This document shows, in pieces, positions 1,155 through 9,540 of a stretch of 10,888 nucleotides of DNA. How positions within the stretch are numbered: position 1 is the first letter of the stretch; the number at the start of each line of letters is the position of its first letter. The translations under genes and the position numbers were made by a program. The stretch lies in the IMG/VR virus record IMGVR_UViG_2600254997_000025. One strand, written 5' to 3'. The notes below the pieces were generated by a model, which saw nothing but the letters and a program-made list of their open reading frames with translations, searched no databases and was not told the origin of the DNA. This DNA comes from a virus. Its lineage: Duplodnaviria; Heunggongvirae; Uroviricota; Caudoviricetes.

Positions 1155-1434
1155 GCGTCCTGTCTCCCCGGTCTTTCTGCTGGGCGAGAAAATCGCGGCA
1201 CAGGCCTTTGGCTTTCAGCTCATTCAGCACAAAATCAATATCTTCATTCAGGTAGCTGAAAATATGCGGAATGTAGAGCTGATGCAGGCCGGAGAGTTCA
1301 CGGTGAATCAAATCACCCCCAACAAACTGGGATACGGCGCTGGCGCGGTTGAGCTTATGGTAAGCCTCAATGCTGAGGTGTTCACGGGCGTCATGACGCG
1401 CTGAGACGGTCTGAGGGGCTTTTTTATTACGCAC
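1147..1434 (-). CDS. Possible 95-aa protein with a GTG start (the position P4 epsilon occupies); uncertain
   Basis: Minus-strand frame is open from 1680 to 1147 but has no ATG. GTG at 1434-1432 is preceded by GGAGG at a 6-nt spacer and overlaps the stop of the 65-aa ORF (GTGCGTAA). Translation reads [95 protein letters not shown] competing plus-strand ORF 1153-1404 covers the same DNA. Confidence 0.3.
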
Positions 1435-1624
1435 GGGACCCCTCCACCACCGGCAGACGGGCAGCAAGGGAGAGCACATAGTCACGGACAAGGGAACGGC
1501 GGGCGCTGCGTTCATCACCGGCGACGGTGCGAAGCATACAGATACTGGGATGACGGTCTGCGCGACGGACAGCCGCAAACACAAAGACAAATTCAGGGTG
1601 TGAGGGGGTAAGGGTTGTAGCCAT
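1427..1624 (-). CDS. Possible small protein, 65 aa ([12 protein letters not shown]...VVEGSRA)
   Basis: Internal ATG of the 208-aa track ORF, preceded by a perfect AGGAGG (revcomp of 1633-1638) at an 8-nt spacer. That SD is itself part of the seqC-like repeat, so it may be coincidental. Confidence 0.3.
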
Positions 1625-1632
1625 GATGGCAG

Positions 1633-1676
1633 CCTCCTTGAAGTAACAGTTACAGCTACCACTAGAGTTCCTACGC
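1633..1676 (-). promoter_or_regulatory. seqC-like antisense target repeat downstream of the CI-like segment
   Basis: Plus-strand CCTTGAAGTAAC (1635-1646) and GTTCCTACGC (1667-1676) are identical to copies at 1859-1870 and 1876-1885. Also contains GCTACCAC complementary to the CI-like segment. Confidence 0.35.
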
Positions 1677-1680
1677 TCAT

Positions 1681-1740
1681 GGGTGGTAGCCCGGACGGGG
1701 GTAGGAATACCGGCCTTCAAGGAAACCGGCCAGCCCGAAG
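1681..1740 (-). ncRNA. Candidate P4 CI-RNA-like immunity RNA (seqB-like segment)
   Basis: On the transcribed minus strand this segment carries CCUUGAAGG, UUCCUAC and CUACCACC. These are complementary to CUUCAAGG and GUAGGAA in the two flanking repeats, and to GUGGUAG (revcomp of 1655-1662) in the downstream repeat only. It is GC-rich with internal GGCCGG/CCGG self-complementarity. Confidence 0.35.
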
Positions 1741-1856
1741 GCTGCCCCGCCCGGACCACCATTATCTGACAGAGGCTACGGTTTAAAAACCACAGCCAGA
1801 AAAACAGGTGTGCCGAAGCAACGACGTAAAAAAAAGACGCATGGCGCGTCATATGT

Positions 1857-1885
1857 CGCCTTGAAGTAACTCGGGTTCCTACGCC
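1857..1885 (-). promoter_or_regulatory. seqA-like antisense target repeat in the leader of the leftward operon
   Basis: Second copy of the CCTTGAAGTAAC...GTTCCTACGC pair, about 20-50 nt downstream of the predicted promoter on the minus strand. Confidence 0.35.
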
Positions 1886-1913
1886 CGGCTGCCGATTTTG
1901 CGGCAGCGGAAAA

Positions 1914-1943
1914 ACTATATCCGCAAATGCCGGAAAAAGGCAA
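1914..1943 (-). promoter_or_regulatory. Candidate sigma70 promoter for the leftward immunity/replication operon (PLE-like)
   Basis: Minus strand reads TTGCCT (revcomp of 1938-1943), an 18-nt spacer, then TATAGT (revcomp of 1914-1919). A 7-bp hairpin (GCTGCCG/CGGCAGC, 1888-1907) sits at the predicted start site. Confidence 0.35.
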
Positions 1944-1956
1944 GCCAGTGTATGGG

Positions 1957-2989
1957 TCCACCACATATTGCAATTTTTATTCTCTTTTAAAATATATTCC
2001 ACGGGCGTCATTAGTGCGAGCGCCTTGTGGGGTCTTTTGCTGTTATACAGCACCAGATATTCCGCCAGCTTCTGGTTAAATAGCGCCAGATCTTCAAAGA
2101 GTAAAATCTCATTAAATTCAATAAACTGCTCTCTTAACGTCCGGTTAAACGTTCACAGATAGCGTTTCATTTTTTGGCGTGTAGGGATAGGTCCAGAGGT
2201 TGTTTGATAGCGGCTTTCCTGCAGCGTTTTTGTCGAAGTTTCCCAGGAACTCTTTTCCGTTATCTGTGATTATCTGGCTGATACCGACCGGGAACAACCG
2301 GGCTGCGCGGCTGAAGAAGTGATTGACGATATCACTGTTGAGTGACGGCACAGCCAGCGCCAGCGCGTAATTGCTGCATTCGTCGATCATGGTGATGACA
2401 TAGCGACGCAGTTCGCCCATTCTGAGCTCAATGGCGTCCATCCCAATGAGCTCACCTGTCTTTACCGGGCGGTAGTGCTTTGGCCTGCGGGGTTTGGCAG
2501 ACCGCTTTTGACAAGCAGTGCCTTCCCCCGCGATCCCAGACGCACAGGTATCATCCGCATTTTATCATGTGCGGCAGCGATCATTCTGCCGATGGTGGAA
2601 ACACTCGGACAGGCCAGATAGCGCTGTTCGCACCAGGGCTTCAGGCGAACAAAAATCTGCTCTTTACCGAGGTTCGGCAGCTCTGTCCTGAGGCGTCGAA
2701 TCTCTTTCAGCACATCGGGATGCCAGTGTTTTTTTCGTCGCACCAGAGGTGCCTTACTGTGCGGGATTAGCCCCTCAGGTCCTTCCTTGTTCAGTAACTG
2801 ACGCCACCAGTAAAGCGTGCGGCAGGACACGCCAAAGGCTTCAGAAGCTGCAGAAATACCGTGTTTATCCCAGAAGTGCAGAGCCTTCATTCTCATTGTT
2901 GCTATATCAGCCATCACTGAAAGCCTCAACGCATAATCGGCCGTTTGGTAGTACTTAGGATAGCCAACCATCAGATGCTGCATTTGCAT
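1957..2989 (-). pseudogene. Degraded DDE transposase (IS481-like), split over three frames
   Basis: Track ORF 2462-2989 has an N-terminal HTH-like region (GISAASEAFGVSCRTLYWWRQLL). ORF 2145-2441 has an rve-type core with ITDNGKEF. The start of ORF 1427-2053 has the transposase C-terminal signature [18 protein letters not shown]. The pieces are in different frames with gaps. Confidence 0.5.
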
Positions 2990-3035
2990 AGTGCAATCTC
3001 CCCTTACTTATCCGGAGGCAATTGCAATATCTCTG
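1957..3035 (-). mobile_element. IS remnant of about 1.08 kb inserted between vis and the immunity region; boundaries approximate
   Basis: ATATTGCAATT at 1966-1976 is an inverted copy of AATTGCAATAT at 3020-3030, a candidate terminal inverted-repeat core. Only 11 bp is shared, so the ends are not precisely defined. Confidence 0.4.
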
Positions 3036-3082
3036 TGAACTTACACAGCCAGAAAAAGGGAGTTTTTGCAGAGCGGGCATCA

Positions 3083-3349
3083 TCATGCGTCGTACCCCCG
3101 TTTGCGTCCGGCAATGCGTCCGGCCATCCATGCGGTGACTTCAGAGTGCAGCCAGGCCACATTTTTACCGCCAAGACTCACCTGCGGCGGAAATTCCCCC
3201 TTACGGATGAGTTCGTAGATGGTCGAGCGTGACAGGCCGCACAGGTGCATCACTTCCGGAAGACGTAAAAAACGCTCCTGTGTGATGTCCGGCAGCGGCA
3301 TCAGTGGCGTCACAGGGGCGGGAGACGGGGAAGAAAAAACAGCTTGCAT
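3083..3349 (-). CDS. vis: Vis/AlpA-family HTH regulator (excision/transcription regulator), 88 aa
   Basis: ORF in track. ERFLRLPEVMHLCGLSRSTIYELIRKGEFPPQVSLGGKNVAWLHSEVTAWMAGR matches the AlpA/Vis helix-turn-helix pattern. GAGG lies 7 nt upstream of the ATG. The 88-aa length matches P4 Vis (orf88) as recalled. Confidence 0.75.
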   Translation of the reverse strand: MQAVFSSPSPAPVTPLMPLPDITQERFLRLPEVMHLCGLSRSTIYELIRKGEFPPQVSLGGKNVAWLHSEVTAWMAGRIAGRKRGYDA

Positions 3350-3451
3350 CGGGCTACCTCGTTAATGTCCATACAGCACCGGATAAGTCCGTCCGGCTTC
3401 GGGTAGCGCTTTATTTTGTGAATATTTTCAGCAGACGCAACAGGGGGGATT

Positions 3452-3469
3452 TGTTCCGGCAGCCTTACA
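3452..3469. promoter_or_regulatory. TGT-N12-ACA dyad, candidate Delta/Ogr activator site for a leftward late promoter upstream of vis
   Basis: TGTtccggcagccttACA seen directly. The dyad centre is about 110 nt from the vis ATG, compatible with a site centred near -55 and a leader of about 55 nt. Confidence 0.4.
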
Positions 3470-3495
3470 ATGCTTGTGTATTTTTTGTTCATCTC

Positions 3496-3525
3496 CACTT
3501 AAAGTCATTTAAAGCCACTTAAAGC
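3496..3525. repeat. Three tandem 10-bp direct repeats (CACTTAAAGT / CATTTAAAGC / CACTTAAAGC)
   Basis: Seen directly, with one-helical-turn periodicity, in the divergent intergenic region. Confidence 0.6.
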
Positions 3526-3628
3526 AATTCGTAATTTTTATAGTGAAATACAAATCGTTTTTTCTTATTCATTCCCGGCGAATTAATAAAAACAAACAGT
3601 AATAAACAGCACAAAAAGCCCATCAACG

Positions 3629-3733
3629 GGTGAACAGTGGTGAACAGACGGTGAACAGTCATTACTGCAATTGTTCACCCTTTAACTTACTGTATTACTT
3701 ATCTTTTTTCTTATGGTGAACAGAGGTGAACAG
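3629..3733. repeat. Iteron cluster: five direct GGTGAACAG copies plus one inverted TGTTCACC; resembles P4 alpha-binding iterons (crr/ori-like)
   Basis: GGTGAACAG at 3629-3637, 3639-3647, 3650-3658, 3715-3723 and 3725-3733, spaced 10-11 bp apart. Inverted TGTTCACC at 3672-3679. As recalled, P4 alpha binds TGTTCACC octamers in ori and crr. Confidence 0.55.
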
Positions 3734-3810
3734 TAAAATATAAAAAACAAACAGTAAGCCGGTTTTTCCTGCGACCTTTTCCTGGCTTGCCGGTCTGAGG
3801 ATGAGTCTCC

Positions 3811-3828
3811 TGTGTCAGGGCTGGCACA
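3811..3828. promoter_or_regulatory. TGT-N12-ACA dyad, candidate Delta/Ogr activator site of the sid late promoter (Psid-like)
   Basis: TGTgtcagggctggcACA seen directly. The dyad centre is about 80 nt upstream of the sid ATG at 3901. Confidence 0.45.
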
Positions 3829-3900
3829 TCTGCAATGCGTCGTGTTGTTGTCCGGTGTACGTCACAATTTTCTCAACCTGAAGTGACGAGGAGCCGGAAA

Positions 3901-4635
3901 ATGTCTGACAACACCATCCCTGAATATCTGCAACCCGCACTGGCACAACTGGAAAAGGCCAGAGCCGCCCACCTTGAGAACGCCCGCCTGATGGATGAGA
4001 CCGTCACGGCCATTGAACGGGCAGAGCAGGAAAAAAATGCGCTGACGCAGGCCGACGGAAACGACGCTGACGACTGGCGCACGGCCTTTCGTGCAGCCAG
4101 TGGTGTCCTGAGCGACGAGCTGAAACAGCGCCACATTGAGCGCGTGGCACGCCGGGAGCTGGTACAGGAATATGACAATCTGGCCGTGGTGCTGAATTTT
4201 GAACGCGAACGCCTGAAAGGGGCGTGTGACAGCACGGCCACCGCCTACCGGAAGGCACATCATCACCTTCTGAGTCTGTATGCAGAGCATGAGCTGGAAC
4301 ACGCCCTGAGTGAAACCTGTGAGGCGCTTGTCCGGGCAATGCATCTGAGCATTCTGGTACAGGAAAATCCGCTCGCCAACACCACCGGGCATCAGGGCTA
4401 CGTCGCACCCGATAAAGTTGTCATGCAGCAGGTGAAATCATCTTTGGAACAGAAAATAAAACAGATGCAAATCAGCCTCACCGGCGAGCCGGTTCTCCGG
4501 CTGACCGGACTGTCAGCGGCAACGCTCCCGCACATGGATTATGAGGTGGCAGGCACACCGGCACAGCGCAAGGTGTGGCAGGACAAAATAGACCAGCAGG
4601 GAGCAGAGCTTAAGGCCAGAGGACTGCTGTCATGA
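3901..4635 (+). CDS. sid: Sid-like capsid size-determination (external scaffold) protein, 244 aa
   Basis: Internal ATG at 3901 of track ORF 3835-4635, with GAGGAG (3888-3893) at a 7-nt spacer. Gives 244 aa (MSDNTIPEYLQPALAQLEKARAAHLENARLMDE...). First gene of a sid-delta-psu triplet, and its stop overlaps the delta ATG (ATGA at 4632-4635). The earlier ATG at 3835 lacks an RBS. Confidence 0.75.
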   Translation: MSDNTIPEYLQPALAQLEKARAAHLENARLMDETVTAIERAEQEKNALTQADGNDADDWRTAFRAASGVLSDELKQRHIERVARRELVQEYDNLAVVLNFERERLKGACDSTATAYRKAHHHLLSLYAEHELEHALSETCEALVRAMHLSILVQENPLANTTGHQGYVAPDKVVMQQVKSSLEQKIKQMQISLTGEPVLRLTGLSAATLPHMDYEVAGTPAQRKVWQDKIDQQGAELKARGLLS

Positions 4636-5132
4636 TTTACTGCCCGTCGTGTGGACATGTTGCTCACACCCGTCGCGCACATTTCATGGACGATGGCACC
4701 AAGATAATGATTGCACAGTGCCGGAATATTTATTGCTCTGCGACATTTGAAGCGAGTGAAAGCTTTTTCTCTGACTGTAAAGATTCAGGAATGGAATACA
4801 TTTCAGGCAAACAGAGATACCGCGATTCACTGACTTCTGCCTCCGGCAGTATGAAACGCCCGAAAAGAATGCTTGTTACCGGATATTGTTGTCGGAGATG
4901 TAAAGGCCTTGCACTGTCAAGAACATCGCGGCGTCTGTCTCAGGAAGTCACTGAACGTTTTTATGTGTGCACGGATCCGGGCTGTGGTCTGGTGTTTAAA
5001 ACGCTTCAGACCATCAACCGCTTCATTGTCCGCCCGGTCACGCCGGACGAACTGGCAGAAAGCCTGCATGAAAAACAGGAACTGCCGCCAGTACGGTTAA
5101 AAACACAATCATATTCGCTGCGTCTGGAATGA
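4632..5132 (+). CDS. delta: Delta-like late-gene transactivator with tandem Ogr-type zinc fingers, 166 aa
   Basis: Two Cys4 units: CPSCGHVAH...CRNIYC and CCRRCKG...CTDPGC. This is the duplicated Ogr-like architecture of P4 Delta, and the 166-aa length matches as recalled. Confidence 0.8.
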   Translation: MIYCPSCGHVAHTRRAHFMDDGTKIMIAQCRNIYCSATFEASESFFSDCKDSGMEYISGKQRYRDSLTSASGSMKRPKRMLVTGYCCRRCKGLALSRTSRRLSQEVTERFYVCTDPGCGLVFKTLQTINRFIVRPVTPDELAESLHEKQELPPVRLKTQSYSLRLE

Positions 5133-5205
5133 GGGCTGCCGGTTAACCCCGGCCGTCGCCGCACACCGTATTTTTATTCTTCAGCATGATGAGAAAGAGA
5201 TAACG

Positions 5206-5808
5206 ATGGAAAGCACAGCCTTACAGCAGGCCTTTGACACGTGTCAGAATAACAAAGCAGCATGGCTGCAACGCAAAAATGAGCTGGCTGCGGCCGAACA
5301 GGAATATCTGCGGCTTCTGTCAGGAGAAGGCAGAAACGTCAGTCGCCTTGACGAATTACGCAATATTATCGAAGTCAGAAAATGGCAGGTGAATCAGGCC
5401 GCCGGTCGTTATATTCGTTCGCATGAAGCCGTTCAGCACATCAGCATCCGCGACCGGCTGAATGATTTTATGCAGCAGCACGGCACAGCACTGGCGGCGG
5501 CACTGGCACCGGAGCTGATGGGCTACAGTGAGCTGACGGCCATTGCCCGAAACTGTGCCATACAGCGTGCCACAGATGCCCTGCGTGAAGCCCTCCTGTC
5601 CTGGCTTGCGAAGGGTGAAAAAATTAATTATTCCGCACAGGATAGCGACATTTTAACGACCATCGGATTCAGGCCTGACGCGGCTTCGGTGGATGACAGC
5701 CGTGAAAAATTCACCCCTGCGCAGAACATGATTTTTCGCGTAAAAGTGCGCAACTGGCATCACGTCAGTCTGTGTAAAATTCCCCGAAAATCCGCCTGTT
5801 TTTACTGA
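5206..5808 (+). CDS. psu: Psu-like polarity-suppression / capsid decoration protein, 200 aa
   Basis: Third gene of the late triplet, with AAAGAG upstream of the ATG. N-terminus MESTALQQAFDTCQNNKAAWLQRKNELAAAEQEY. The call rests on synteny plus recalled similarity. P4 Psu is recalled as about 190 aa, so the C-terminus may differ. Confidence 0.7.
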   Translation: MESTALQQAFDTCQNNKAAWLQRKNELAAAEQEYLRLLSGEGRNVSRLDELRNIIEVRKWQVNQAAGRYIRSHEAVQHISIRDRLNDFMQQHGTALAAALAPELMGYSELTAIARNCAIQRATDALREALLSWLAKGEKINYSAQDSDILTTIGFRPDAASVDDSREKFTPAQNMIFRVKVRNWHHVSLCKIPRKSACFY

Positions 5809-5810
5809 AA

Positions 5811-5841
5811 AAAGCCATGCATCGATAAGGTGCATGGCTTT
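5811..5841 (+). terminator. Hairpin immediately after psu stop, possible terminator of the late operon
   Basis: AGCCATGCA (5813-5821), 9-nt loop, TGCATGGCT (5831-5839): a perfect 9-bp stem flanked by an A run before and TT after. The T tract is short, so intrinsic termination is uncertain. Confidence 0.4.
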
Positions 5842-5916
5842 GCATGCGTTTCCCTGCCTCATTTTCTGCAGACCGCGCCATTCCCGGCGCGGTCTGAGCG
5901 TGTCAGTGCAACTGCA

Positions 5917-5944
5917 TTAAAACCGCCCCGCAAAGCGGGCGGGC
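5917..5944 (-). terminator. Candidate intrinsic terminator for the minus-strand cargo operon
   Basis: On the minus strand GCCCGCCCGC, loop TTT, GCGGGGCGG form a GC-rich stem (about 8 bp with one bulge) followed by TTTTAA. It lies about 35 nt downstream of the last cargo gene stop and is not followed by a T run on the plus strand. Confidence 0.4.
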
Positions 5945-5978: not shown

Positions 5979-6668
5979 TCATTTATTTTGTAATGCCGCA
6001 TCAAATCTGGTCTTGAGATCTTGGAATGGGATAACGAGTTTATCGATATAATCTTTATTATTATTTTGTAGAATTGCTTCAACAAAATCATTTAGAGGTG
6101 CATAGTTTTCTAATACTTTAGAATCGATAAAATCTTTATAGGACATACATTCAGCACCAATGCTAAGGCTTTCACCTATATACTTTTGTTCAAGAGATCT
6201 AATACAAGGAAAACCAATATCGTTCTCTCGTAGGGCTATAGAAATATTTTTGATTAATTCAGTTATTAACATTTCATCATTAGTTGGTGAAAATACAGAT
6301 GAATCTCTATTTTTCCTGAATTGATGTACCCAGCAAAAATATTGGCATAGATAGAATCTTGTACTATCAATATAATATTGATCCGACGATAGGTCATTGT
6401 GATCTTTAATATAACATAGCCTTCCTAAAAAACCATTTGCAGCACTAAGTAATGTTAACCCCCAACGTCCGATTTCAAGATCTCTTGCTTTTTTAAAATT
6501 ATAAGCACGTTCATCCTCTTTAATTCTCTGTTCACTTTCATATTTCAACTTATTTTTAAATGATTCTAACTCTCTTTTATCAATATGTTGTAAAAAAGCC
6601 TTACAAACAAATCCAATAATTGCAAATGAAATGCTTGATGACAAAATACCTTCCCAAAAGCTACTCAT
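5979..6668 (-). CDS. Small protein, 229 aa, with one predicted N-terminal transmembrane helix; third gene of the RT cassette (possible DRT1 partner / effector)
   Basis: ORF in track. Hydrophobic N-terminus FWEGILSSSISFAIIGFVCKAFL. The ATG (6668-6666) overlaps the TGA (6667-6665) of the nitrilase ORF, indicating translational coupling. AT-rich codon usage like the rest of the cassette. Confidence 0.65.
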   Translation of the reverse strand: MSSFWEGILSSSISFAIIGFVCKAFLQHIDKRELESFKNKLKYESEQRIKEDERAYNFKKARDLEIGRWGLTLLSAANGFLGRLCYIKDHNDLSSDQYYIDSTRFYLCQYFCWVHQFRKNRDSSVFSPTNDEMLITELIKNISIALRENDIGFPCIRSLEQKYIGESLSIGAECMSYKDFIDSKVLENYAPLNDFVEAILQNNNKDYIDKLVIPFQDLKTRFDAALQNK

Positions 6669-8512
6669 TTCTCACCTCGCTCTAATAGAGCATTATAGTC
6701 AAACCCTGGAGGATTGTGTTTAATAGTATCGGAGTTAATTCTGAATGAACGATATTGAGCCTCTCTCAATGCATATATATTTAAAGTAGTAGTTAGGATG
6801 CAATTGTTTTCCCCACCTTTTATATATATCTTATTTGAAATAGTGCTACTGGTCGGTTGTAGAACACAAGAACCGCCATAATGCGAAGTATTTGATTGAG
6901 CCACATAACAATGTAAATCCCGTGTCGCTGACTCAGTGATATGTTGATAATAATTTATATCTTGATTCCATACGCAAGCAAATAAAATATCCAACTGCGA
7001 ACGAAATAATGCTCTATGCTCGATATTAGCCAGTTCAAAACAGTTGTATGTAGAAAATGATACGTTTTTCCACTTAATCAAATGATACCGTTGTTTACTA
7101 GGTTTAGGAGAGGATATTTTTAACCTTAAAGAATTCAGCATCGTAATCTCACTAGGTGCGTAATGATTTTTCACTCGAAAAACTAACATACTGGATTTGT
7201 GTTTAAAGTTTGAAGTATAAGGCAGCATTTCAACCAAAATATTATATGCGCGTTCGTTAATAACCCAATGCTCTAATCCGAAAATCAAAGATATTTGTTT
7301 TCTCCTTGAATGTGCTGCCATAAAAGGTAACCACGACACAGGAATTGATAACTCAGGGAGTAGTAATATCTGCACATTTTCTTCAGTTGCCGAGTTGAGA
7401 ATACGATAAAGGTTTCTTTGCCGTTCATAACTTAAATTTGGAGACTGATCTTTTCTGCAAGCACTTTCAATATTACGACGTTCAACTCTCATATTTGCCA
7501 ACGCAACTTTTATTGTGTCATTACCACTTCTATCATCAATTCCTACCTTTATTTCAAGAGCTTTATTATCTTTTATCTTAGTAACAGAGCAATTTTTTAA
7601 GTGATGCTTATTTTCATGCGTAAACTTATGTAGTTTTCTTGTATGAAGAGCATCAATCAAATCGAAAAGCTGCTTTTCATCAGCATGAATATATCTAGGG
7701 GTTTTATTTAATTTATCATTATCAAGTGGAATACCATGCATCTTACTGTATAAATTCTCCTCAGTAAGATCTCCTTTATATTTAGTATAGTTAGCTAAAG
7801 GCCAAGACACTAGATTATGACGAATCAAATTACTGCTTCTAAATCTTTCAATTAGAACAGACATTCCATCGGACTGTTTAATTAAAGATTTCAAACCTTC
7901 CAAAGCTCTATTTTGTGGCTCTTTATCACCTAAAATGACATTTAAATCTAACAAAGCCAAATTCAAACAAAGAGAAATATCAATGTATTTCTGCATTCCA
8001 TTTTTAAGTTTTGGAGATATAACACTATCACCTTCCTTCCACTTCATTTTATTAATTGATTCTTTAATTTGTTTGTAAAAGGCGATTGAAAATCCATATT
8101 TTCTTGTAATTAATGTATACGATAGAACTTTCTCCCATAACCGACTGAACCTTAGAGAATTTTCACCTTTAAAAAACAGCGTTATTTGCTTTAAGGTATT
8201 CTCATTCGATGGAAGATTGCAAAGCCTATGAGCTAAGATATGTGATGATATATATTTTGATAATTCAGTTTCATTCTCTGCCAAACCTACAATACTTCTA
8301 AATTTATTTGCCGAACCATCAAGTAATATATCATAAGCAAATTTATCGAGATCGCTAGATATATGTTCTTCCGGTAAAAAACGAAATGCACTGCTTCTGT
8401 TCTCAATTTCTTGTTTGAAGACTTGTAAACCAGCCAAACTATGATCTTTATTGAAATAATGAAAAATCAATTTATCCTTTTGAATTGGTAATTCATGATA
8501 ACTCTCGGTCAA
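6665..8512 (-). CDS. Nitrilase (C-N hydrolase) domain protein; probably the C-terminal part of an RT-nitrilase fusion (annotated start is TTG)
   Basis: Nitrilase-superfamily catalytic triad context: Glu in ILLLPELS, Lys in LVFRVKNHYAPSE, Cys in TYNCFELANIEHR, plus HYGGSCVLQP. The frame is open 30 codons upstream of the TTG, back to the slippery heptamer in the RT gene. The first in-frame ATG is only at about codon 155. Confidence 0.8.
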   Translation of the reverse strand: MTESYHELPIQKDKLIFHYFNKDHSLAGLQVFKQEIENRSSAFRFLPEEHISSDLDKFAYDILLDGSANKFRSIVGLAENETELSKYISSHILAHRLCNLPSNENTLKQITLFFKGENSLRFSRLWEKVLSYTLITRKYGFSIAFYKQIKESINKMKWKEGDSVISPKLKNGMQKYIDISLCLNLALLDLNVILGDKEPQNRALEGLKSLIKQSDGMSVLIERFRSSNLIRHNLVSWPLANYTKYKGDLTEENLYSKMHGIPLDNDKLNKTPRYIHADEKQLFDLIDALHTRKLHKFTHENKHHLKNCSVTKIKDNKALEIKVGIDDRSGNDTIKVALANMRVERRNIESACRKDQSPNLSYERQRNLYRILNSATEENVQILLLPELSIPVSWLPFMAAHSRRKQISLIFGLEHWVINERAYNILVEMLPYTSNFKHKSSMLVFRVKNHYAPSEITMLNSLRLKISSPKPSKQRYHLIKWKNVSFSTYNCFELANIEHRALFRSQLDILFACVWNQDINYYQHITESATRDLHCYVAQSNTSHYGGSCVLQPTSSTISNKIYIKGGENNCILTTTLNIYALREAQYRSFRINSDTIKHNPPGFDYNALLERGEK

Positions 8513-8580
8513 CGTAAAGCCTTTCTCATCATTCGCTGCCTGTTTGATGAATCCATTAAGGGTTCGCTCTATGAATTTTA

Positions 8581-9540
8581 TTACTTCTTCACCTTTATCT
8601 TCTTTTTTAATGTCCGGGGATGAAAAACTAAAAGAATATCATCCACATAGCGACCGTAGTACGATGGATTAATTTTTGATTTAATATCTTTATCAAAACC
8701 CATTAAATACCAATTAGATAATATGGCAGAAGAAGTAAATCCAATTGGAATGCCTTTTGATGAAGGAGTTGAATGTGTCACACCAATATATGGAGATATT
8801 TTCTCTCTGTATTTTTGATGCATCAACCTCAATTTACTATTCAACAACATAGAAAGAGCTTTAATTTCTTCTAATTGTTCTTCGTCAATAATTCTATCAA
8901 TGGCATCAAAATCTATATCTATATTATAATAAAAACCCTTAAGATCCAGAGAAAGAATTGCAACATCATTTCGCTCTTTTTCTATAACTTCTATCGCTTT
9001 ATCGATACCACCATCTCGCCATTTATTATAATTATCAATGTATCTTTCAAAGATATTTTTTGAGGAGTTTTTTGGCGCATCGAAACTATTCTTAGAATAT
9101 TTTTTTATTACTTTTGATATTCTATTTCCATAAACCGAATCAGAAAACTTGTCATCTAGCATTGAACCAACAAAGATAGACCAGAGTGTTTCTATTAAAT
9201 ATATTTCAATAGGAGCAACGATCAAATAATTTACAGCACCTACTTTGTATTCATCTGATGTCTTATTATTACTTAAAAAAAGAGCTCCGCTCGTTTGCTC
9301 AATATCCAAATGGCTATCAATTATTTTTGGTAATAATTCAACATCAATTTTATTTAGCCACTCATTAAAGTTAATGTCATTATTATTTTCAAAAAAATCA
9401 ACCACTTTTTCTATTTTTTCGTCATAGAGAGAATCTTCAAATTGAGCGATTTCTTCCTTTAGGAAAAAATTTAAGTTTTCGTAGTAAGCATATGACTTAA
9501 GACAATTATATGCACTAACAACTATATCTTTTGTAATCAT
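8581..9540 (-). CDS. Reverse transcriptase (UG/Abi-type, defence-associated), 319 aa in this frame
   Basis: RT palm motifs: LSLDLKGFYYNIDIDF, GIPIGFTSSAILSNWYLMGFD (the GxPQG..S..L.N.YL-type motif) and YYGRYVDDILLVF (the YxDD catalytic motif). The ORF ends 6 codons after an A_AAA_AAG heptamer. Confidence 0.85.
   Translation of the reverse strand: MITKDIVVSAYNCLKSYAYYENLNFFLKEEIAQFEDSLYDEKIEKVVDFFENNNDINFNEWLNKIDVELLPKIIDSHLDIEQTSGALFLSNNKTSDEYKVGAVNYLIVAPIEIYLIETLWSIFVGSMLDDKFSDSVYGNRISKVIKKYSKNSFDAPKNSSKNIFERYIDNYNKWRDGGIDKAIEVIEKERNDVAILSLDLKGFYYNIDIDFDAIDRIIDEEQLEEIKALSMLLNSKLRLMHQKYREKISPYIGVTHSTPSSKGIPIGFTSSAILSNWYLMGFDKDIKSKINPSYYGRYVDDILLVFHPRTLKKKIKVKK
8602..8608 (-). other. A_AAA_AAG slippery heptamer at the RT/nitrilase frame junction
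   Basis: On the minus strand ACA TTA AAA AAG AAG reads A_AAA_AAG in the RT zero frame. A -1 shift here continues GAA GAT AAA GGT ... with no stop into the nitrilase ORF, exactly 30 codons to the TTG at 8512. Confidence 0.5.

Follow-up and report, generated by a model that had tools for sequence, protein, structure and literature searches.

The window, that is, the whole 10,888-nt stretch of DNA analyzed here, very probably carries the RNA-based immunity module of a P4-like satellite prophage at 1626-1945 on its minus strand, read leftward. The module runs from a PLE promoter through the seqA leader, the CI RNA and seqC to the kil gene. This reading is based on homology, RNA folding, complementarity and covariation across elements. 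The processing, translational block, Rho-dependent termination and immunity phenotype are inferred for the window copy by analogy with the P4 literature.

Judged from its sequence, the window is an E. coli prophage of the P4-like satellite type. Its satellite genes are alpha, orf106, orf151, epsilon, kil, vis, sid, delta, psu and int. Positions 1-1763 are 97% identical to P4 (X51522) 6742-8504, and positions 3047-5941 are 98% identical to P4 8728-11624. When 1100-2000 was used as the query, phage P4 matched over 1100-1948 with 94.5% identity, and the DNA flanking the module as a whole is approximately 94-98% identical to P4. The same element was found in 12 complete E. coli genomes at 99-99.7% identity, and a tRNA-Leu gene adjoins it on the int side in the E. 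coli relative examined. The module lies in the left operon, between PLE and kil-epsilon-orf151-alpha. The element type, gene order, promoter hexamers, RNA fold, Rfam families and two flanking targets are all shared with P4, as are the position of seqC on the kil ribosome-binding site and that of the timm region inside kil. The window differs from P4 in a spacer between seqA and CI that is 39 nt shorter, in changes to boxes a, b and c that are matched in every copy and in an insertion sequence (IS) within eta, beside the promoter.

Anatomy and proposed action of the module

A sequence-only reading of this DNA had drawn attention to direct repeats that flank a middle segment, and all of its repeat strings were found where it had placed them, within 1636-1676 and 1859-1884. 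The string CCTTGAAGTAAC is an exact 12-nt direct repeat (1636-1647 and 1859-1870), for which the chance expectation within 316 nt is about 0.003 (46,360 position pairs / 4^12). The string GTTCCTACGC occurs at 1667-1676 and 1875-1884 and sits within a 16-nt repeat of 88% identity (1661-1676 versus 1869-1884). The reverse-complement elements that the reading had seen in the middle segment are also present, GTAGGAA at 1701-1707 and CCTTCAAGG at 1714-1722. It had further described one element as complementary to the 1633-1676 repeat only; this is GGTGGTAG (1682-1689), complementary to GCTACCAC (1655-1662), and GCTACCAC has no copy in the upstream repeat. Its proposal that the middle segment can pair with both flanking repeats agrees with the perfect 7-bp and 8-bp pairs that this segment forms with each target.

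The P4-style CI/seqA/seqC identity that had been suggested was upheld by Rfam matches, collinearity with P4 and covariation. Two Rfam families were matched on the minus strand over the full length of their models: C4 (RF01695) at 1679-1766 with 86.1 bits (E 2.5e-16, model 1-87 of 87) and isrK (RF01394) at 1830-1907 with 73.4 bits (E 1.4e-14, model 1-77 of 77). Both scores exceed the curated gathering thresholds of Rfam, which are 45 bits for C4 and 50 bits for isrK. The a1/b1 target motif, c4-a1b1 (RF03163), was matched at 1868-1920 on the same strand with 49.6 bits. The same families lie in P4's own region, with C4 at 8420-8507 (74.9 bits on cI) and isrK at 8615-8692. The family names derive from P1/P7 (C4, a1b1) and Gifsy-1 (IsrK), and C4 and IsrK are structural homologues of the P4 CI RNA and seqA (PMC3632133, PMC4825925). 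An alignment to the P4 immunity region, which the sequence-only reading had named as a check, gave a base-for-base match with PLE, seqA, cI, seqC and kil.

The boxes described below were placed by homology and complementarity, and all features are on the minus strand. PLE is a promoter of the constitutive type (1914-1943), with the -35 hexamer TTGCCT at 1943-1938, an 18-nt spacer and the -10 hexamer TATAGT at 1919-1914. It had already been proposed from the sequence as TTGCCT-18-TATAGT, and a promoter scan returned it as the only sigma-70-like site across 1350-2100. PLE is identical to P4 8699-8728, where the -35 occupies 8728-8723 and the -10 occupies 8704-8699, and X02534 annotates the latter hexamer as a consensus -10. 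Transcription presumably starts near 1907. The seqA leader, an IsrK-like element (1828-1907), was delimited by the isrK and c4-a1b1 matches and a terminator scan. It forms hairpin 1 (1888-1907) and hairpin 2 (1872-1887), which are 99-100% paired across 38 types, and it ends in an intrinsic terminator (1828-1850) with its stem at 1836-1850 and its U-run at 1828-1835. Box a1 (GUAGGAA, 1876-1882), the target of CI box a', is in the loop of hairpin 2, and box b1 (CUUCAAGG, 1859-1866) is the target of CI box b'.

The CI RNA is a C4-family antisense RNA that carries seqB and was located at 1679-1766 by Rfam and by its fold. It is homologous to P4 cI and, like it, has a closing stem and two hairpins; its seqB is complementary to the upstream seqA and the downstream seqC on one transcript. 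The segment at 1681-1740 that had been proposed from the sequence does hold CI RNA, but it was somewhat too short, given the Rfam match at 1679-1766 and a closing stem that spans 1684-1761. This stem has 17 bp (1684-1700 with 1745-1761), and between its arms are hairpin I (1731-1744) and hairpin II (1709-1730). Box b' (CCUUGAAG, 1715-1722) is in the loop of hairpin II, box a' (UUCCUAC, 1701-1707) is in the single-stranded joint from hairpin II to the closing stem, and box c' (GCUACCAC, 1683-1690) is on the 3' arm of the closing stem and is complementary to seqC only. Folding of the middle segment, another check that had been suggested, gave -53.3 kcal/mol (z = -5.0 against shuffles), and none of the 200 shuffles folded as well. 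The closing stem is acceptor-like, with a CCA-containing sequence 3' of it.

Downstream of CI, seqC (1633-1676) holds box a2 (GUAGGAA, 1668-1674), box c2 (GUGGUAGC, 1655-1662), which pairs with c', and box b2 (CUUCAAGG, 1636-1643), which overlaps the kil Shine-Dalgarno sequence GGAGG at 1633-1637. seqC thus reaches the kil translation start, and a stretch equivalent to timm lies downstream. The first gene of the regulated operon is kil (1427-1624, start ATG at 1624), an Icd-like gene of 65 aa that is near-identical to P4 kil and matches NCBIfam NF033153 (phage_ICD_like) with 75.7 bits. Positions 1468-1624 within kil correspond to, and are near-identical with, P4 8209-8365 (offset 6741) and, as the counterpart of P4 timm, may act as a Rho-dependent terminator. 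Epsilon (1147-1434) and orf151 (699-1154) follow in the left operon, as assigned from the P4 annotation, BLAST to P4 and the ORF list; no NCBIfam family was found for these two ORFs. Further left are orf106 and the start of alpha.

In P4, processing of the untranslated PLE transcript yields CI, which pairs with seqA and seqC; the resulting premature termination keeps the replication genes off (PMC4825925). P4 CI is an RNase P substrate (PMC5499578), and timm is Rho-dependent (P4 8365-8209; PMC3177188). By analogy, constitutive PLE (1943-1914) would transcribe the seqA leader (1907-1828) with boxes a1 and b1. The transcript would then enter the C4-family CI of approximately 85 nt (about 1761-1684), which would expose b' in the loop of a hairpin and a' in an unpaired joint, and would continue into seqC (1676-1633), where a2, c2 and b2 are found and b2 overlaps the kil ribosome-binding site. 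CI would be excised from this same PLE transcript, its 5' end being made by RNase P in P4, and would pair in trans with seqA and seqC of new transcripts. Pairing with seqC would block kil translation and expose the Rho-dependent terminator in kil (1624-1468, the equivalent of timm). With epsilon, orf151 and the alpha primase silenced in this way, the prophage would stay quiescent, and superinfecting satellites that carry the same boxes would meet immunity. The escape route in P4 involves eta. In PMC10111431, which cites Forti 1999, kil is described as a truncated in-frame form of eta, and termination is said to be prevented when late-promoter transcripts are translated into full-length eta, in coupling with the gene upstream.

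Pairing boxes and covariation among relatives

The promoter, stems and kil are near-identical to those of P4; the substitutions are concentrated in the pairing boxes, and each of the three boxes shows compensatory changes. Box a' is UUCCUAC in the window and UUCUCAC in P4, and boxes a1 and a2 are GUAGGAA in the window and GUGAGAA in P4. Similarly, box b' is CCUUGAAG in the window versus CCUGUGAA in P4, matched by CUUCAAGG versus UUCACAGG in boxes b1 and b2, and box c' is GCUACCAC versus GCUAUCGC, matched by GUGGUAGC versus GCGAUAGC in box c2. With its own targets, the window CI pairs at 7/7 positions of box a, 8/8 of box b and 8/8 of box c. The self pairs are perfect in the window and in P4, whereas the cross pairs between the two are interrupted, and the summed box duplex energies are approximately -57 kcal/mol for self and -34 to -36 kcal/mol for cross combinations. 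Since the window boxes are unlike those of P4 and yet matched at all copies, the window copy is predicted to be heteroimmune to P4, with a different immunity specificity.

Relatives were collected from other genera, from E. coli genomes and from IMG/VR, the last by a DNA pattern scan for the conserved CI core. A search of genome contigs with a Kil probe gave at least five loci, and no two sampled loci came from one isolate genome. Enough flanking sequence was available for 131 modules, and 127 were parsed. These 127 hold 20 versions of b' and 7 of a', in 43 combinations. The window type is the second most common (11/127), and the P4 type is rare (2/127). At least 99% identity to 1626-1945 was seen in 126 E. 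coli records, and the best-matching E. coli genome is 99.7% identical over this region. Nearly all of the 47 distinct types have their own boxes fully complemented at the homologous upstream and downstream positions.

Base pairs were counted in an alignment of 38 distinct types (A2). The types were picked to differ in their CI boxes, so the variation in CI is by design, while the matching of the targets to it is not. Helix a'-a1 (7 bp) is 100% paired with two-sided changes at 6/7 pairs, and helix b'-b1 (8 bp) is 99.7% paired with two-sided changes at 6/8, giving 12/15 pairs with two-sided changes between CI and seqA. On the seqC side, a'-a2 is 100% paired (two-sided changes at 6/7 pairs) and b'-b2 is 94.4% paired (6/8), so that 12/15 pairs in a and b are compensatory here as well. 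Most misses in b'-b2 arise where a few sequences are shifted in register by one base. Helix c'-c2 is 99.7% paired, with two-sided changes at 3/8 pairs, and the internal stems of CI are 100% paired, with such changes at 4/27 pairs. When the partner columns were slid by 1-3 positions, pairing fell to 31-51% for the two main structures as wholes and to 24-71% for box c. None of the 500 shuffles reached the observed percentage paired or the observed covariation score. RNAduplex matrices of CI against seqA and seqC for 17 elements were noisy because the stem sequences pair too, and they were replaced by box-level pairing and these column-wise counts. A local hairpin in seqC, formed by the 3' half of c2 with the bases before b2, was also considered and was rejected, as it was 74% paired and its slid controls were similar.

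State of the window copy and alternative explanations

An IS481-family insertion sequence (1949-3046, minus strand) interrupts eta at 5 bp upstream of the PLE -35 and is flanked by a 6-bp target duplication, AGCCAG, at 1943-1948 and 3047-3052. It parts vis (3083-3349) and the late-promoter region from PLE. An IS at this site was found in none of the complete E. coli genomes compared; NZ_CP062910 likewise lacks it. The IS replaces the native upstream DNA and could change the strength of PLE. In P4, eta is a long frame that crosses PLE, seqA, CI and seqC and ends as kil. Translations of the window, a relative (L003) and P4 were compared, and what is left of eta in the window is a remnant (1427-1948, minus strand): the IS has cut off its 5' end, and one surplus T in the U-run of the terminator (indel at 1828) shifts its frame. 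The reverse transcriptase and the IS transposase frames are also broken. In the DNA shared with the closest relative compared, all four length differences (at 1828, 3742, 5732 and 8623) are single-base homopolymer changes, a pattern typical of sequencing error, and they may be such errors. If the changes are real, the immunity module has been kept and the circuit is probably incomplete: with eta truncated and frameshifted, the escape by late-promoter transcription and eta translation has probably been lost.

These features raise the possibility that a decaying satellite has left the module as an inactive relic, its promoter disabled by the IS and no CI RNA made. The IS only 5 bp from the -35 and the broken frames of eta, the reverse transcriptase and the IS transposase point that way. 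On the other hand, the promoter hexamers, all stems and all boxes are intact and match IS-free relatives, identity over 1626-1945 reaches 99.7% in the E. coli genome that matches best and the four length differences may themselves be sequencing errors, and we consider a relic unlikely. The state of eta also bears on whether the repeats reflect the coding constraint of a long ORF (eta, 'cI protein', 'ash' or 'Icd-like') instead of RNA pairing. On the minus strand, 1427-2053 is an open frame, long CDSs cover the homologous region in GenBank and PGAP annotations and eta is a real gene in P4 (PMC10111431). However, the variation is Watson-Crick compensatory between the inverted elements, which coding constraint does not predict, and the window boxes are still perfect even though its eta frame is broken by the frameshift and the IS. 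A purely coding origin of the repeats is thus scarcely credible.

The other two alternatives concern the identity of the RNAs. It is very improbable that the module is a P1/P7-type immI anti-immunity module (c4, icd, ant) of a P1-like or lambdoid prophage that controls an antirepressor, although several likenesses would fit one. The Rfam families matched carry P1/P7 names (C4, a1b1), kil matches the Icd-like family NF033153, and the P1-like phage D6 has approximately 70% DNA identity over CI and seqC, with c4, icd and ant in the same order. An Icd-like first gene with b2 over its Shine-Dalgarno sequence is present in the window, but it is followed by P4 epsilon, orf151, orf106 and alpha, with no Ant, Rha or KilA gene among them, and the window is colinear with P4 throughout, at 97-98% identity. 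Since the cargo is epsilon, orf151 and alpha, membership in the c4-icd-ant type fails on ant. The P4 and P1 systems are homologous in design, and the window copy is the P4 version. We give a small but somewhat larger chance to a role of the seqA-terminator unit (1830-1907) as an IsrK-like short RNA as well, a trans-acting activator or decoy that would end at the intrinsic terminator and, for example, titrate CI RNA or open the downstream ribosome-binding site. The full-length isrK match (73.4 bits) speaks for this, as does the conserved intrinsic terminator (1828-1850), in which one stem pair changes from GC to CG in 13 of the 38 types. The short IsrK isoform of Gifsy-1 acts in trans on the long isoform (PMC4825925), and a transposon screen in S. 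Typhi scored IsrK-like elements from P4-like prophages as required (PMC3632133). The P4 literature treats seqA as a CI target, and such a role would be compatible with P4-type immunity and would not replace it.

Related systems and box diversity

The window module shares its Rfam family and clan with P1/P7 immI, as well as the layout of a promoter, a1b1, a processed RNA and a2b2 over the ribosome-binding site of an Icd-like gene. The P1 C4 and P4 CI RNAs are both RNase P substrates (PMC5499578). The cargo of the P1 system is the antirepressor ant, in contrast to epsilon, orf151 and the alpha primase in the window. In the Gifsy-1 IsrK/STnc1160 system of Salmonella (orf45, anrP, anrQ), to whose isrK model the window seqA matches at full length, IsrK is a structural homologue of P4 seqA and a processed RNA lies downstream of it (PMC4825925). 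There, short IsrK activates translation of an antirepressor-like gene, whereas for P4-like elements this is putative only. The window element itself carries a UG5-nitrilase reverse transcriptase system, which sets it apart from the retron of the P4-like retronphage phiR73. phiR73 reportedly keeps the CI/seqA/seqC design with a different specificity (Sabbattini et al. 1996, Virology 216:389), which makes it a precedent for such a change in a P4-like element. The phage-plasmid N15 is said (Ravin et al. 1999) to have a small processed C4-like RNA, CA, that acts by premature termination of downstream genes. CA RNA reportedly controls the antirepressor antA in a linear plasmid-prophage, and it is likened to the window module by description only.

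The box diversity leads us to suggest, tentatively, that P4-like satellites might use a combinatorial RNA address code for immunity. The box copies are interleaved on the DNA (a1, b1...b', a'...a2, b2), and therefore swapping one box alone needs at least two separate sequence patches. Nevertheless, all four combinations of the common box alleles occur, and mismatched intermediates are almost absent among the sampled modules. Reassortment despite the interleaving would point to repeated recombination in patches, or to strong selection that favors new types heteroimmune to one another. In the proposed code, the window is one of the common types. A third box, c, connects the 3' arm of the CI stem with seqC, and it follows this arm more closely than the 5' arm of CI itself does, a hint of strand invasion or of an alternative fold. 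On seqC the boxes come as a2, c2, b2, an order that does not parallel the b', a', c' of CI, and all three duplexes cannot form a single continuous helix. This kind of module is already well studied, and we do not claim novelty for the diversity of its boxes. A large survey of P4-like satellites nowhere mentions the RNA, and the extent and combinatorial nature of the box diversity, together with box c, may go beyond the literature covered, a scope that did not include the older primary P4 papers.

For annotation, these results locate a P4-type immunity RNA, together with both of its targets and the promoter, where pipelines label only an 'Icd-like' or 'ash family' protein. The a and b boxes predict mutual exclusion of satellites and could be used to type P4-like elements, though the practical value is modest. 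P4-like elements occur in a large fraction of Enterobacterales and bring anti-phage defence cargo with them. The IS and the broken eta in the window suggest that this satellite has retained its immunity but may no longer be inducible, which would amount to one stage in the domestication of an element with defence cargo.

Pairing boxes of the immunity module

The CI RNA of this P4-like element was found to carry a third pairing box, c, in addition to a and b. In the closing stem of CI, the 3' arm (1683-1690) is perfectly complementary to a segment of seqC at 1655-1662, which is located between a2 and b2. Among related modules, changes in the CI 3' arm were matched by Watson-Crick changes in the seqC c segment. 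By contrast, the 5' arm of CI itself tolerates G-U pairs opposite the 3' arm. The order of the boxes is not colinear, as seqC reads a2, c2, b2 and CI reads b', a', c'.

The spacer that separates the CI RNA from the seqA terminator is poorly conserved, and its length splits the elements into a short-spacer and a long-spacer group. In the window it spans 1767-1827; the P4 spacer (8508-8613 of record X51522) is 39 nt longer. Genome pipelines have called the long frame over these RNA genes "Icd-like protein", "ash family protein" or "cI gene product", and the CI RNA and seqA were not annotated in these pipeline records (locus L003, 4427-5026, and loci L009-L018 of the related modules).

Insertion, cargo and frameshifts

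An IS481-family insertion sequence (1949-3046), flanked by a target duplication (1943-1948 and 3047-3052), lies within eta, upstream of the promoter PLE and 5 bp from its -35 hexamer. It separates the left operon from vis and the late promoter. Its own transposase frame is broken into ORFs at 2462-2989 and 2145-2441. A search of 5,426 complete E. coli genomes found the element at this eta site in none of them.

The variable hotspot between psu and int (5979-9540, minus strand) holds a defence-type reverse transcriptase system, which consists of a UG5-nitrilase reverse transcriptase (RT; PADLOC PDLC02995) and a 229-aa membrane partner, RTasTM. The RT is 958 aa long in relatives; in the window a single-base change in the A-run near 8623 splits it into two pieces of 319 and 615 aa. 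Compared with the closest relative, NZ_CP062910, the window differs in length at four places, this one included (1828, 3742, 5732 and 8623), and each difference is a single base in a homopolymer run. The changes shift the frames of eta, psu and the RT, and could be sequencing or assembly errors rather than genuine decay.

Reassortment of boxes a and b

Boxes a and b were compared across 127 modules (loci L001 and L004-L138; alignment A2, with 38 distinct module types). Twenty versions of box b and seven of box a occurred in 43 combinations. For the common alleles, all four possible combinations were seen, despite the interleaving of the copies on the DNA (a1, b1...b', a'...a2, b2). The immunity boxes a and b are reassorted among modules.
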